Assembly: GCA_020632095.1 (NCBI GenBank)
Contig: JACKGF010000001.1
Location: 605,366 to 669,365 of the forward strand
Reading direction: 5' to 3'
Origin: Candidatus Nomurabacteria bacterium
GTDB taxonomy: Bacteria; Patescibacteriota; Minisyncoccia; Phycocordibacterales; UBA918
DNA length: 64,000 nucleotides
Shown here one piece after another: positions 1 to 6,466 of the stretch (positions within the stretch are counted from its first letter, which is position 1; each line of letters starts with the position of its first letter). The notes beneath the pieces are model-generated. The model was not told the origin of the DNA. It did no database searches and saw only the letters and a program-made list of their open reading frames with translations. The translations under genes were made by a program, and so were the position numbers.

Positions 1-305
1 CCTGCCACGCACTGTCTCGATGTGGTTTTACCACACCGGTTAGAGACTACCAAAATGAAGGGAAGTATTTCACTGGCGACTCCACGGTACCCGAAAGCCC
101 GCTTCAAAGTCTTCTTCCTATGCTACGCATCAAATCAATAGCCCCAATACGAAGCTACAGTAAAGCTCCTGGGGTCTTTTCGTCTAACTGCAGGTACCCG
201 GCATCTTTACCGGGATTGTATTTTCACCGAGCAGGTCCTCGAGACAGTTTCCCACTCATTACGCCATTCGTGCACGTCGGAACTTACCCGACAAGGAAAT
301 ACGCT

Positions 306-525
306 CTATATTTCCTTCTCCTACAACTTATTTGTAGACATTTCACAATAGGACTCTATCTTAACCCGTTATTCCGAAGAACACTTGGGTCTGCAACATT
401 TGGTCTCTTGTTGGTTGCATTTGGATTATGTTTACATTTCTGCAAACAAGGTAACTATGGCTAGGCTGTTTAACCTATAACCGTTCCAATCCGTCGAGCG
501 CACTATTTATTGGATAATGTGCTCG
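306..525 (-). other. 220-nt insertion in 23S exactly after the U equivalent to E. coli U1931. Candidate small ORF-less group I intron or intervening sequence.
   Basis: rRNA-sense flanks read TAATCGTTCTAAGGT | insert | AGCGTATTTCCTTGTCGGG, against E. coli ...CGGUCCUAAGGU AGCGAAAUUCCUUGUCGGG. The upstream exon ends in U and the insert ends in G (...GGAAATATAG), as a group I intron would. L1931 is a known rRNA intron site. Confidence 0.5.
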
Positions 526-731
526 ACCTTAGAACGATTATAGTTATCGCTGACATTTACCGGGGCTTATACAGTCCAGCATAACAATCCGAAGATCATT
601 ACACCCCCCGTATTTAACCTTCCGGCATAGGTCAGGCGTCACCCCCTATACTTCCACTTTCGTGTTTGCAGGGAGCTGTGTTTTTGTTAAACAGTTGGCA
701 GGAAATCTTTCGCTGCGGCCCAATACACCAC

Positions 732-1029
732 TTTAGTCTCAACCAGGTTTGATTTTTAACTAAAGTACAAATCGTTGCCTCAAACTAAAACCTTGATTCA
801 AATTTCAGTGTGACAACATCAATAGTTCCGCCGGATTCAATATGCTTTCCAGTCAAATCTCCCAAGGGAGAGATATCTGCAGTAAAGCGAAACTCACAAC
901 TATCGCCATTGGCATCTACGCCACTAACGATGAATGTTCCGTTCGGATTGTCGAGACTTCCTTGCAATAAAGTTATCTCGACTGACCCTATTATTTTCAA
1001 TTTCATTCCACTTTCTCCTTTGTTGAGAA
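732..1029 (-). other. Expansion/insertion of about 300 nt in the 23S domain IV region (E. coli ~1700-1760, helix 63 area), closed by a long-range stem.
   Basis: Flanks 713-731 (ctgcggcccaatacaccac) and 1030-1048 (gtggtgtattgggcagacc) are inverted complements. Conserved 23S sequence resumes on both sides. E. coli has about 80 nt here against about 350. Confidence 0.55.
785..1006 (-). CDS. 73-aa ORF inside the 23S insertion, preceded by a canonical Shine-Dalgarno sequence. Function unknown; coding status uncertain.
   Basis: Minus-strand sequence upstream of the ATG reads aaaGGAGaaagtggaATG. The ORF lies fully within the insertion and on the same strand as the rRNA. No homing-endonuclease motif recognised. 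Confidence 0.3.
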   Translation of the reverse strand: MKLKIIGSVEITLLQGSLDNPNGTFIVSGVDANGDSCEFRFTADISPLGDLTGKHIESGGTIDVVTLKFESRF

Positions 1030-1573
1030 CAAAGTGGTGTATTGGGCAGACCTTATCCCTAAGTTACGGTCGCTTTTTTGCCGAGTTCCTTGAGGACCTC
1101 TCACTCGTTCGCCTTAGTCTTCTCGACTCTACCACCTGTGTCGGTTTGCGGTACGGAACCATTATGCTTAACCCAAACGAAGTTTTTCTCGGAAGCGTGC
1201 TCCCCACATCGGATCGGCCGTAGCCTCACCTTCAGACCCTACTCGGACTTGTGCCTCCCGGATTTACCAAAAAGACATCCTCATAGTTCCAACTCCAATC
1301 CAATAAGGAGCTGCGGGTACAACGCTCCGTCCCTCCATAGGAACATAACAGTGTGCAGGAATATTAACCTACTATCCATCGGGTCCCCCATTCGGGATTC
1401 CCTTAGGACCGACTAACCCTTCGCTGATCAACATCGCGAAGGAAACCTTGGTATTTCGGCGGGCAGGGTTCTCACCTGCCTTGCGGTTACTTGTGCCGGC
1501 ATTCTCACTCCTCCTCGCTCCACCGCGGCTCTCGCCTTGGATTCATCGCAGAGAAGGACGCTCTCCTACCACT

Positions 1574-1737
1574 CGTAGGCTTCATTGAGGATTCAAGCAT
1601 TGCTTGAATCAAGAAAATATTGATGAGGTAGATGGAATCGAACCAACGACCTTTACCTTTACAGGGTAACGCTCTACCGTCTGAGCTATACCTCGTCTAA
1701 TATTTTCTCAAAGAACTTTTCCTCAATGAAGCCTACG
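1574..1737 (-). other. Helix-45-type intervening sequence in 23S. An 18-bp stem encloses about 130 nt and replaces the short E. coli hairpin at ~1170-1190.
   Basis: Arms 1574-1591 (cgtaggcttcattgagga) and 1720-1737 (tcctcaatgaagcctacg) are perfect inverted repeats. Flanks align to E. coli CTGCGG / GGTAGGGGAGCG. Helix 45 is a classic site for RNase III-excised intervening sequences. Confidence 0.6.
1623..1695 (-). ncRNA. tRNA-like cloverleaf (anticodon GUA, class I-like with a 5-nt variable loop) inside the helix-45 intervening sequence. No encoded CCA.
   Basis: Sense CGAGGTA-TA-GCTC-AGACGGTA-GAGC-G-TTACC-CTGTAAA-GGTAA-AGGTC-GTTGG-TTCGATT-CCATC-TACCTCA-T. Canonical D-arm (A14, G18 G19). U33 and purine 37 present. 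Perfect T-loop TTCGATT. Acceptor 6/7 bp and T-stem 4/5 bp. Confidence 0.4.
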
Positions 1738-1821
1738 AATCCGCAGTTTCGGTAATATACTTGAGCCCCGATCATTTTCGGCGCAAGGACTCTCGACCAG
1801 TGAGCTATTACGCTATCTTTA

Positions 1822-1856
<35 letters not shown>

Positions 1857-2417
1857 TGAGGAATCCTCACCTCCTCATTTTGCACTGAGTATATATTTTG
1901 GGACCTTAACTGGCGATCTGGGCTGTTTCCCTTTCGACCAATGGAGCTTCGCCCCCATAGTCTAACTGCCGCGTTCTTGACCTGCTGGTATTCGGAGTTT
2001 GATAAGAAAGACGAGATTTCTCCCTGTTCTTTCTTTCCAGTGCTCTACCCCCAGAGGGAACACGCGACGCCAACCCAAAAGCTGTTTCGGAGAGAACCAG
2101 CTATTACGGAATTCGATAAGCTTTTCACTCCTTACCACAAGTCATCCGATGATTTTGTACGGTCAACCGGTTCGGGCCTCCACGACCTATTACAGTCGCT
2201 TCACCCTGCTCATGGCAAGCTCATCCCGCTTCGGGTCGTACCCCTACCCTATATTCGCGCTATTCACGCTCGCTTTCACTACGCCTCCGTGGGTTGCCAC
2301 TTAGACAAAGGATAAAGGTACACTCGCCGGCTCATTCTTCAATAGGCACGCCGTCGCCCCGCAGGGCTTCGACTCCTTGTAGATGTATGGTTTCAGATCT
2401 ATTTCACTCCCCTCTCC

Positions 2418-2463
<46 letters not shown>

Positions 2464-3013
2464 TTCAAGAATATTTAGCCTTACCAGTTAGTACTGGCAG
2501 ATTCACCCGAGCTATTCATGTCTCGGGCTACTCAGGAGTAGAACCAAAAGAGTCAGATACATTTCGAATACAGGGCTATTACCTACTGGGGCCACGCTTC
2601 CCAACGTGTTTTCCTATATATCTGTTTTGTAACTCTCCGCAACTAAATGCAGATTCTATCCTACAACCCCATACATATAAATACGTATGGTTTGGGCTTC
2701 TCCCGTTTCGCTCGCCGCTACTTAGGGAATCGCAAGAACCTTCTTCCTGATTATAATGGCACAACCGAAGTTGTATCTAATCAGAAAGAAAATTCCGTTT
2801 ATTGCTTTCTATTCCTACAGGTACTGAGATGTTTCACTTCCCTGCGTACGCTCCCTCATACAAGGGTCACTGCCGATGACAGTGGGGTTTCCCCATTCGG
2901 ACATATCCGGGTCAAAGGTTATTTGGCACCTCACCGAATCTTATCGCAGCCATATCACGTCCTTCATCGCTTCTTGAAGCCTAGGCATCCACCATACACC
3001 CTTTGTTCCTGTA

Positions 3014-3057
3014 AGGAACGTTGAACACCATCGCTACAGCGATGGTGTTCAACGTTC
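3014..3057 (-). other. Perfect 20-bp hairpin immediately 5' of mature 23S (leader / processing element).
   Basis: ggaacgttgaacaccatcgc-tac-agcgatggtgttcaacgttcc. Confidence 0.5.
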
Positions 3058-3930: not shown

Positions 3931-4722
3931 TCATTCGTAAGGAAGAACGATAAACACTGGACTCAATTCCTGCTGTTCTTGAGTTAACCACCCAAATTCT
4001 TTCTTCCCTACCACTCTTCGAATGTGTTCACTCAATCTCTTTGCGTCTCTGGAAAACATTCCAACACAACCATGACTAGCATTTTTACCCGGCGCAGGGC
4101 GGTCATGAAAACCTAGTCCACCCTCAGTTAGGCGTGTAAAGTAGGGCATCTTCGCACACCTGCCGCGACTTATAATATTGCCAGCACTATCTTTCTGAGC
4201 ACAGCCAACTGGATACGCACTGGAACGTCGATTCGGACCAGCCACTTCAATGAAATGATATATGCCTTCCGTGGTTCGACACCTTCGACCGATATCTGGA
4301 CACCAATCTTTACCACCTACTGCCGGCCCCCAGGCCACTAGCTTGCCTTGCAAGTAATGTCCCCACGCTAATTCTCGGGGAGAAAAAACTATCACGTCGC
4401 TTGAGTCTACTGTGTACCCCAGAAAAACTAAGTACTCAGGCAGTGGCGATAGATCCATCCAGTTAGTCTCTGTCGGAGGCAACACCAGATGCTGCCTTCT
4501 CCTAAGTGGTGTGTTCTGGCGGTTATATCGTTGTACGAAGTATCTATAGGACTCGTCGTCGGCCAAGTCAGGGATATTATTCCAACTCTGCCCTTTTTTG
4601 ATAACCAGACACCGCCAACCTACCCCCAATTTTCCCTCGCAAACCTTCTTAGCAAACTCATTGGCTGAAGCAGGGGATGTGAAAAAACAAAACGAAAGAA
4701 CAACCACCAACAATCTAAACAT
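3931..4722 (-). CDS. Secreted L,D-transpeptidase (YkuD-like) domain protein.
   Basis: N-terminal signal peptide. H-x14-SHGC catalytic-type motif (FHDRPAPGKNASHGCVGM). Confidence 0.5.
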   Translation of the reverse strand: MFRLLVVVLSFCFFTSPASANEFAKKVCEGKLGVGWRCLVIKKGQSWNNIPDLADDESYRYFVQRYNRQNTPLRRRQHLVLPPTETNWMDLSPLPEYLVFLGYTVDSSDVIVFSPRELAWGHYLQGKLVAWGPAVGGKDWCPDIGRRCRTTEGIYHFIEVAGPNRRSSAYPVGCAQKDSAGNIISRGRCAKMPYFTRLTEGGLGFHDRPAPGKNASHGCVGMFSRDAKRLSEHIRRVVGKKEFGWLTQEQQELSPVFIVLPYE

Positions 4723-5920: not shown

Positions 5921-5948
5921 TTTAGACAACAAGGGTCTAAAAATCACG

Positions 5949-5981
5949 GGCTAGTCTACCAAGACTGCCCGTTTTTTTATA
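5949..5981 (+). terminator. Rho-independent terminator.
   Basis: cgggctagtct-acca-agactgcccg followed by ttttttt. Confidence 0.55.
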
Positions 5982-5994
5982 TTTAAACTGGGGT

Positions 5995-6466
5995 GCATTC
6001 ACCCCAAGAGTACTTCCATTTTTATAGTCGACTGACGTCTCCTTAAAAATTAGGGCGCGCATAGGCCCTGCTGAAGTTGGTTTTTGTTGGAGATGGTTGG
6101 TGGTGCGCCGATATTTTGCCCTAGGAAAGGGGCAAAATACTGGCGATGCATTCACCCCAAGGGTACTTCCATTTTTATAGTCGACTGACGTCTCCTTAAA
6201 AATTAGGGCGCGCATAGGCCCTGCTGAAGTTGGTTTTTGTTGGAGATGGTTGGTGGTGCGCCGATATTTTGCCCTAGGAAAGGGGCAAAATACTGGCGAT
6301 GCATTCACCCCAAGGGTACTTCCATTTTTATAGTCGACTGACGTCTCCTTAAAAATTAGGGCGCGCATAGGCCCTGCTGAAGTTGGTTTTTGTTGGAGAT
6401 GGTTGGTGGTGCGCCGATATTTTGCCCTAGGAAAGGGGCAAAATACTGGCGATGCATTCGCAATAG
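5995..6466. repeat. 153-bp tandem repeat, three near-identical copies plus a partial fourth start.
   Basis: Copies start at 5995, 6148 and 6301 with one mismatch in total. Each unit holds hairpins ttttgccc-tagg-aaa-ggggcaaaa and agggc-gcgcatag-gccct. The minus-strand ORF 5937..6368 simply reads a 51-aa peptide three times. Confidence 0.9.

Follow-up and report, generated by a model that had tools for sequence, protein, structure and literature searches.

A compact, probable group-I-derived intron family without a nested P4-P6 domain at site L1931 of 23S rRNA in CPR/Patescibacteria

Within a stretch of 64,000 nucleotides (nt) from Candidatus Nomurabacteria bacterium (assembly GCA_020632095.1, contig JACKGF010000001.1, positions 605,366 to 669,365; hereafter the window), the 23S rRNA gene carries 220 extra nt (window 525..306, minus strand) at the junction that corresponds to Escherichia coli U1931/A1932. 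This insert likely belongs to a compact family of group-I-derived introns that carry no open reading frame (ORF) and were found only at this site, L1931, and in the Candidate Phyla Radiation (CPR, Patescibacteria), and it probably self-splices. It is a structural variant that is specific to CPR and was previously unclassified: its helices, listed below, are shared by the family, and the P4-P6 domain that canonical group I introns nest within P3 is absent. More than 130 homologous inserts occupy the same junction in other contigs, so that the insert is not a chance feature. That the family constitutes a natural, conserved subclass of group I ribozymes working without P4-P6 is put forward more tentatively, with confidence slightly short of even.

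The minus strand carries the bacterial 23S rRNA gene (window 3015..1; Rfam LSU_rRNA_bacteria, 1660 bits), which is truncated by the window edge at position 2265 of the large-subunit (LSU) model; the original prediction of an insertion had omitted the strand of the gene and hence of the intron. Read as RNA, 5′ exon, insert and 3′ exon are ...CGUUCUAAGGU(526) / CGAGCAC...AAAUAUAG(306) / AGCGUAUUUCCUUGUCGGG, or at greater length ...GCGAUAACUAUAAUCGUUCUAAGGU / CGAGCACAUU...GGAAAUAUAG / AGCGUAUUUCCUUGUCGGGUAAGUUCCGAC. Both flanks fit the bacterial consensus CCUAAGGU/AGCGAAAUUCCUUGUCGGG (the universal H69-H71 sequence), and because a boundary shift of one base in either direction destroys this match the insert is exactly 220 nt. 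We take the site to be U1931/A1932 on our own numbering, anchored on ψ1911/1915/1917 and m5U1939. The L1931 designation agrees with this, as the same exon pattern retrieves canonical L1931 introns that bear homing endonuclease genes (PMC1995217). The flank match thereby confirms the predicted 220-nt insertion directly after U1931 (306-525), and the other elements of that prediction also stand: the final base of the 5′ exon is U and that of the insert is G, the insert is short and has no ORF of at least 40 amino acids (aa) on the RNA strand of window 306-525, and the CPR context is right, the 23S exons of the window being 92.9% identical to those of a Saccharibacteria metagenome-assembled genome (MAG), CAZWXM010000018 (L010). 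The minimum free energy (MFE) of the insert is -53.9 kcal/mol (z = -3.47).

Relatives were collected with two sequence patterns. The genome scan, which covered one genome per species, combined the group I S element with the 3′ exon (pattern AAGATANAGTC, a gap of 30-60 nt, then the 3′ exon) and matched at least 119 loci, of which about 79 are canonical L1931 introns with the P/Q elements AUGCGGGAA and AAUCCGCAGG (248-750 nt among the matches listed, many of about 625 nt, from many phyla). Eleven are close relatives of the window insert, all from CPR: six Saccharibacteria, together with Paceibacteria, Paceibacterota, Kaiserbacteria, Nomurabacteria and one further MAG. The metagenome scan used an exon-free pattern of R and S elements (GAGACCAAATG, a gap of 25-55 nt, then AAGATAGAGTCC) and gave at least 120 loci. 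Over both scans the R...S core was present in at least 132 copies, 130 of the 132 having a recognizable L1931 exon on at least one side; among the matches listed, 123 copies include 12 nt of both exons, and the 96 of these that are unique range from 191 to 306 nt in length and from 52 to 88% in identity to the window copy. Every genome-assigned copy among the matches listed is from CPR/Patescibacteria and all copies listed are ORF-less; with lengths of 191-306 nt the members are too short to encode a LAGLIDADG ORF, and the intron-encoded LAGLIDADG ORF of mobile L1931 introns is absent from the RNA strand of window 306-525 (searched for ORFs of at least 40 aa). Copies at other insertion sites were sought as a test of covariation between guide and exon, and only L1931 was found among the exon-free matches listed; the one clearly different context (L133) is that of a canonical ORF-bearing intron, apparently within a protein-coding region.

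The features of the insert and its flanks are given below in the order of the RNA, with intron positions numbered 1-220 (the window coordinate is 526 minus the intron position) and window coordinates on the minus strand (-). Structure was counted on a MAFFT alignment (A1) of 77 sequences that includes 12-nt exon flanks.

Window 526..537 (-), exon -12..-1: last 12 nt of the 5′ exon, UCGUUCUAAGGU, predicted to be intron-bound from RNAalifold, pair counts (99.4%) and compensatory changes
Window 495..525 (-), intron 1-31: hairpin A, with 11 of 12 pairs changed on both sides; present in the MFE structure
Window 489..492 (-), G34 G35 A36 U37: 5′ strand of helix X, pairing with intron 100-103
Window 481..488 (-), U38 G G A A C G G45: P1a guide strand, complementary to exon -5..-12
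Window 456..480 (-), intron 46-70: segment Z, UUAUAGGUUAAACAGCCUAGCCAUA, highly conserved in sequence
Window 448..455 (-), G71 U72 U73 / A74 C75 C76 U77 U78: internal guide, invariant in the 77 sequences except for U72C
Window 430..447 (-), intron 79-96: hairpin H, P2-like, 7 bp with a GAAA (GNRA) loop; 7 of 7 pairs changed on both sides
Window 423..427 (-), A99 A100 U101 C102 C103: 3′ strand of helix X, followed by A104-A106 (window 420-422)
Window 414..419 (-), intron 107-112: P3 5′ strand, UGCAAC; 5 of 6 pairs covary and 99.6% are paired
Window 398..413 (-): P3 loop of 16 nt, CAACAAGAGACCAAAU, holding the R-like element and the P7 5′ strand
Window 392..397 (-), intron 129-134: P3 3′ strand, GUUGCA, pairing with 107-112
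Window 363..391 (-), intron 135-163: P8 hairpin; 4 of 5 basal pairs covary
Window 351..362 (-): S-like element, AAGAUAGAGUCC, comprising J8/7 (164-171) and the P7 3′ strand (G172 U173 C174 C175)
Window 348..350 (-), U176 A177 U178: P9.0 5′ strand; 3 of 3 pairs with 217-219 covary, 100% paired
Window 321..337 (-), intron 189-205: P9 hairpin from the MFE structure, variable and absent in the shortest relatives
Window 310..317 (-), intron 209-216: conserved tail, AAGGAAAU, complementary to AUUUCCUU in the 3′ exon (+6..+13)
Window 306..309 (-), A217 U218 A219 and G220: P9.0 3′ strand and omega-G (window 306)
Window 294..305 (-): first 12 nt of the 3′ exon, AGCGUAUUUCCU, with AGC in P10 and AUUUCCU pairing with the intron tail

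In the 77-sequence alignment the proposed model pairs 94.3% of alignment cells, as against 39-44% when partners are slid by one to three columns, and contains 647 cells with two-sided changes, as against about 204 in shuffles. RNAalifold, run without a prior structure, recovered hairpin A, hairpin H, P3, P8, P1a and the helix between the intron tail and the 3′ exon, thereby adding P1a and the tail-exon helix, both of which had been overlooked.

Much of the 3′ half corresponds to the group I catalytic domain. The Rfam group I model aligns AGAGACCAAAUG to the R element and AAGAUAGAGUCC to the S element with P8 between them, and 11 of the 12 bases of the S-like element fit the group I consensus in the Rfam alignment; its conservation within the family alignment is not independent evidence, as the element formed part of both search patterns. 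The 5′ strand of P7 (G119, bulged A120, G121, A122 and C123; window 407-403) lies inside the P3 loop, which is the canonical P3-P7 pseudoknot, and P8 follows directly on the P3 3′ strand. In the 11 relatives that were found without the loop as bait (the genome-scan matches listed) the P3 loop is identical in all 11. P7 comprises G119-C175, bulged A120, G121-C174, A122-U173 and C123-G172, pairs that are invariant and match at the sequence level only, and its geometry is what we take to be the usual guanosine site, judged against the Tetrahymena sequence. P9.0 puts the final intron base beside P7, and this base is G in every copy listed, although omega-G lay outside the metagenome search pattern. 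In the tail-exon helix RNAalifold pairs AGGAA with UUCCU, which is extended here to intron 210-216 with exon +6..+12; pair 215:227 is A-U in 47 sequences and U-A in 27.

The 5′ half is organized around the exons. Hairpin A begins at the first intron base and differs in sequence between copies. The 5′ exon is predicted to pair in two parts, -12..-5 with intron 38-45 (P1a) and -5/-4..-1 with intron 74-78 (P1b). In P1a, exon UCGUUCUA faces URGAACGR as 8 bp in nearly all of the 96 unique sequences, and the helix is present in the MFE structure of all six members tested; an exon C(-8) accompanies G41 in L173 and L200, and in L234 exon GAGUCCUA faces intron UGGGACUC, giving three compensatory pairs. 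The two parts of the guide are split by a conserved stretch of 28 nt (46-73), of which 46-70 is segment Z and 71-73 is the P10 guide; no covarying helix was detected in segment Z in the family alignments, and some relatives have an optional hairpin after position 50. The internal guide G71 Y72 U73 A74 C75 C76 U77 U78 complements the ligated exons AAGGU/AGC, that is, P1b plus P10. P10 (intron 71-73 with AGC of the 3′ exon) is 100% paired, with U72C making a better pair to G222, while P1b (intron 74-78 with AAGGU of the 5′ exon) is invariant and gives U(-1)-A74 in all 77 sequences. Complementarity of the ligated junction AAGGUAGC to the guide is reached in 2.6% of shuffles, and complementarity to both the 5′ exon and the ligated junction in 0.45%. 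In helix X, pair 37:100 is C-G in 41 and U-A in 28 of the 77 sequences (56 and 31 in the 96-sequence set).

Several other pairings were considered and set aside. Extension of hairpin A into the exon as P1 (U(-1)-A32 and G(-2)-C33) is not maintained, position 32 being U in 12 sequences and position 33 variable. A guide made of G60 C61 C62 U63, which would yield a U.G pair, is not conserved in L127, L137, L173, L182 and L200, unlike the invariant AGYUACCU. Hairpins within segment Z (local GG/CC or UAGG/CCUA) and a helix of 46-49 with 68-71 show no consistent covariation, A48 often lying opposite C69. The X 5′ strand (GGAYU) could pair with the S element (AGUCC) in place of 99-103, but this leaves the covariation of 37:100 unexplained, and a pseudoknot in which the hairpin A loop (UCCAAU) pairs with AUUGGA at 36-41 is confined to the window's own subclade. 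An association of position 32 with the 177:218 pair was not treated as evidence, as there are two states only and the minority was noted only among short-tail copies. The insert also has Rfam hits to RT-6 (E = 0.33) and CRISPR-DR7 (E = 1.6), which lie far under their thresholds and were taken as chance.

To our knowledge group I introns are defined by a two-domain core, and all solved structures and search models assume P4-P6 plus P3-P9. The catalytic core is formed at the junction of these two domains (PMC10964413). In the insert the nested P4-P5-P6 domain is lacking: P3 encloses 16 nt and thus has no room for it, the 5′ strands of P3 and P7 are just 6 nt (CAACAA) apart, and the Rfam alignment deletes the P4-P6 model positions. 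With this core feature missing, the insert is described as group-I-derived and not as a standard member. In a canonical L1931 intron used as a control (L119, 80.2 bits) Rfam places P4-P6 between the P3 strands. The P3 of L010 (CCAAAC/GUUUGG) has the same sequence as the P3 recognized by eye in the canonical Chlamydiae intron L092, and with P3 shared and P4-P6 removed the family looks like a canonical L1931 intron minus P4-P6.

A number of points weigh against reading the insert as a splicing group-I-derived intron. The Rfam Intron_gpI model (RF00028) gives it 14.4 bits (E = 0.53) and gives seven relatives 14.7-24.9 bits, all below the gathering score of 50. The splice-site pair would be U(-1)-A74 and not a U.G wobble, although exon-guide pairing is present with a split guide; we know of hardly any group I introns without U.G at the cleavage site, where it is nearly universal. 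P1b, P7 and J8/7 are invariant, so that covariation is unable to test them, and conservation in the alignment is no test of the R and S elements because they were search bait (S in both patterns, R in that of the metagenome scan). A single covarying pair supports helix X; P1a, P1b and X are mutually crossing, and their coexistence is putative. At least eight contiguous pairs with the 5′ exon arise in 22% of shuffles, which makes single-sequence complementarity weak. The original prediction of a minimal group I intron at L1931 is accordingly borne out for the catalytic 3′ half (R- and S-like elements, covarying P3, P8 and P9.0, omega-G, and a guide complementary to both exons) and not for canonical group I architecture, given the absence of P4-P6 between the P3 5′ strand and P7, the U-A splice-site pair and the sub-threshold score with the Rfam group I model; the doubt expressed with it over a convincing P1 or P7 was justified, since the insert is not a canonical group I intron. 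Finally, the L1931 intron of Simkania was reported to be unspliced, going by the title of Everett 1999 as cited in PMC11270868.

Three other explanations bear on these observations. The insert might be a canonical group I intron with a cryptic P4-P6, in which X is P4, H is P5 and only the labels are unusual. The 3′ strand of X with its flank (AUAAUCC) does resemble the Q element with J5/4 and the P4 3′ strand (CAAUCCGCAG in L119), H lies between the X strands as P5 lies within P4, and the AAA after X resembles a joiner of the J3/4 type. Every canonical intron, however, has P4-P6 between the P3 5′ strand and P7, whereas here the covarying partner of P3 lies 3′ of X, 6 nt before the P7 5′ strand, so that the strand order differs whatever labels are used; there is no P6, the 5′-exon guide would fall within ‘J4/5’, and the Rfam model gains nothing by aligning P4-P6. 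This arrangement is therefore considered improbable. Decay of a canonical L1931 intron, leaving a remnant without P4-P6 that is retained in mature 23S rRNA or removed only with the help of proteins or other RNAs, would account for the missing core domain and the lost wobble pair, and the canonical-like P3 sequence (suggesting deletion), the lack of a homing endonuclease in the family and the Simkania precedent are in keeping with it. Such a remnant is nevertheless unlikely, as omega-G, a P9.0 that covaries, the P10 guide and a P1a that follows changes in the exon are all kept at 52-88% identity to the window copy, and 220 extra nt beside H69, which lies at the subunit interface, would hardly be tolerated; an intron that needs a protein would in any case still be a spliced one.

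The remaining explanation, that the insert is no intron and represents an RNase III-type intervening sequence (IVS) or an expansion segment, was the alternative offered in the original prediction and is unsupported. The insert is short and ORF-less, the same 23S gene contains two stem-closed insertions of IVS type (window 723-1045 and 1575-1740), and such short inserts of Saccharibacteria went unclassified in a published survey. An IVS, in contrast, is one extra stem formed from its own paired ends at a helix tip (PMC8708148), and the ends of this insert do not pair together: in both the MFE and the centroid structure its 5′ end is in a local hairpin and its 3′ end is unpaired. The insert lies at a conserved junction, flanked by two universally conserved bases, and holds the R and S core, P3, P7, P8 and omega-G. 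This explanation is accordingly very improbable.

On the preferred reading, in which the insert is a group-I-derived intron, catalysis and the role of P1b are what we infer from the comparative model. The 3′ half (107-220) would act as an ordinary group I P3-P9 domain, with a P3/P7 pseudoknot, P8, a consensus J8/7, P9.0 and omega-G, and with the guanosine-binding G-C pair beside the bulged A in P7. The 5′ half (1-106) would be a substrate-holding domain in place of P1-P2 and P4-P6, in which the last 12 exon bases are clamped by the separated guides P1a (38-45) and P1b (74-78), hairpin A may stack on P1b and the cleavage site, and helix X would link what precedes P1a to what follows the GNRA-capped hairpin H. 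Small IC3 introns have a GNRA-capped P2, and hairpin H could behave in the same way, with P8 as a possible docking site. In the first step an external guanosine bound in P7 would attack the U(-1)/C(+1) bond, after which omega-G would take the site of the external guanosine, docking via P9.0. The freed 5′ exon, kept in place by P1a and P1b, would then attack the G220/A221 bond in the second step, the 3′ splice site being aligned by P9.0, P10 (71-73 with the first three bases of the 3′ exon) and the tail-exon helix. Ligation of the exons would restore the H69-H71 region of 23S rRNA, and up to that point P1a is expected to sequester the 3′ strand of H69. The wobble pair has its receptor in J4/5 of P4-P6, so that loss of P4-P6 and loss of the U.G wobble would be mutually consistent, a link that we likewise infer.

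The closest known systems are the canonical bacterial and organellar L1931 introns (of Simkania, Thermotoga, Synechococcus and chloroplasts; IC1-like and usually with a LAGLIDADG gene), which share with the insert the insertion site, the R and S core sequences, the order P3/P7/P8, omega-G and a guide ending in CCUU that pairs with exon AAGG. They differ in having P4-P6 (AUGCGGG...AAUCCGCAGG) in P3 and a guide GCCUU that gives U.G, and in their length of 250-750 nt, frequent ORF, Rfam scores of 80 bits and occurrence in many phyla (PMC1995217). RNase III IVSs are likewise short, ORF-less 23S inserts common in CPR, but consist of a single extended stem at a helix tip and leave the rRNA fragmented, whereas the insert lacks a terminal stem and contains a ribozyme core. 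The Azoarcus tRNA-Ile and Anabaena tRNA-Leu introns (IC3) are about 200-250 nt long and ORF-less, with a GNRA-capped P2-type hairpin and a minimal P9. The insert resembles these small bacterial tRNA introns in all of these features but, unlike it, they have a complete P4-P6, a U.G wobble and a contiguous guide. Engineered Tetrahymena ribozymes minus P4-P6, from the work of Ikawa, Shiraishi and Inoue in 2000 and of Doudna and Cech in 1995, reportedly keep some group I chemistry; such P3-P9 ribozymes share with the insert the lack of a nested P4-P6, but are weak laboratory deletions, whereas the insert family is natural and conserved and has an elaborate 5′ domain of its own. The lariat-capping ribozyme GIR1 differs from the insert in that it keeps P4-P6, lacks P1 and catalyses branching and not splicing. 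It is similar in being a natural derivative of a group I core with a rearranged architecture (PMC2219692).

The literature search found no description of the L1931 family or of any natural group I intron without P4-P6. In a survey of rRNA insertions, classified by Rfam model at E ≤ 1e-5, insertions are reported in 35 of 35 Saccharibacteria 23S genes, and the survey describes 64 of 66 Saccharibacteria rRNA insertions as short and unclassified (PMC11270868). The family fits this unclassified set, and its lack of the usual P4-P6 would explain why the survey and standard models leave such inserts unclassified. If the family does work without P4-P6, it would combine a P3-P9 catalytic module with a 5′ domain of a new kind that clamps the substrate, uses a split guide and has a Watson-Crick U-A pair at the cleavage site, and its shortest members (about 190 nt) would be among the smallest self-splicing introns. 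Such a family would show what group I chemistry truly requires, a question so far explored by engineered deletions, and structural studies would gain a very small ribozyme (191-230 nt). Most of the ‘unclassified short insertions’ in the 23S genes of Saccharibacteria would then be explained, as would the label ‘not introns’ that standard surveys give to many rRNA insertions in CPR, and the annotation of CPR rRNAs and genomes would improve. The pairing of 12 nt of the 5′ exon and about 10 nt of the 3′ exon points to a way in which an intron that lacks an endonuclease could remain at a single site.

Some relatives form tandem arrays in which very short exons lie between the introns (L167, L134/L168/L185 and L157/L210; 8-11 nt in L167, L157 and L210). 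In L167 another group I intron, apparently at L1923, ends 8 nt upstream of the L1931 family member, and as the P1a target is complete only once this upstream intron has been spliced an order of splicing is implied. In L157 and L210 a canonical intron begins 11 nt downstream of L1931. The canonical L1931 group I introns among the listed MAG matches are spread far more widely than older literature suggests, with hosts that include Acidobacteriota, Eremiobacterota, Proteobacteria, Planctomycetota, Chlamydiota, Nitrospirota and others, and the many of about 625 nt are large enough for an endonuclease gene.

At least five insertions occur in the visible 2.3 kb of the 23S gene. One of about 165 nt (window 1575-1740, minus strand) lies in the loop of 23S helix 45 (LSU model position 1218) and is closed by a perfect stem of 18 bp (CGUAGGCUUCAUUGAGGA / UCCUCAAUGAAGCCUACG), as an RNase III-type IVS would be. 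Within it, on the same strand as the rRNA, is a complete tRNA-Tyr(GUA) at 1622-1695 (Rfam tRNA, 65.6 bits; ARAGORN), which is the sole tRNA of the window and is 74 nt long with a short variable arm, an unusual feature in bacterial tRNA-Tyr. L163 and L168 have a homologous helix 45 IVS with the same basal stem and no recognizable tRNA. Another insertion of about 320 nt (window 723-1045, minus strand), near LSU model position 1775, has a stem of 17 bp (CCCAAUACACCACUUUG / CAAAGUGGUGUAUUGGG) and contains a 73-aa ORF (785..1006) that is preceded by a Shine-Dalgarno-like AAAGGAGAAAG and has no Pfam match (best E = 0.083). Smaller insertions relative to the Rfam model are one of 68 nt near position 228 (window ~2720-2790, minus strand) and one of about 17 nt in the H68 region (window ~584-600, minus strand).

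No 16S rRNA gene is present within the 61 kb upstream of the 23S gene (window 3016-64000), and the rRNA genes are therefore unlinked, as has been reported for many CPR genomes (PMC8172020). The gene nearest to the 23S gene (3931..4722, minus strand) encodes a YkuD L,D-transpeptidase domain protein, and an ORF at 5937-6368 (minus strand) is made up of three tandem copies, nearly identical, of a unit of about 50 aa (MRALIFKETSVDYKNGSTLGVNASPVFCPFPRAKYRRTTNHLQQKPTSAGP...), and the repeats run on into the neighbouring ORF.
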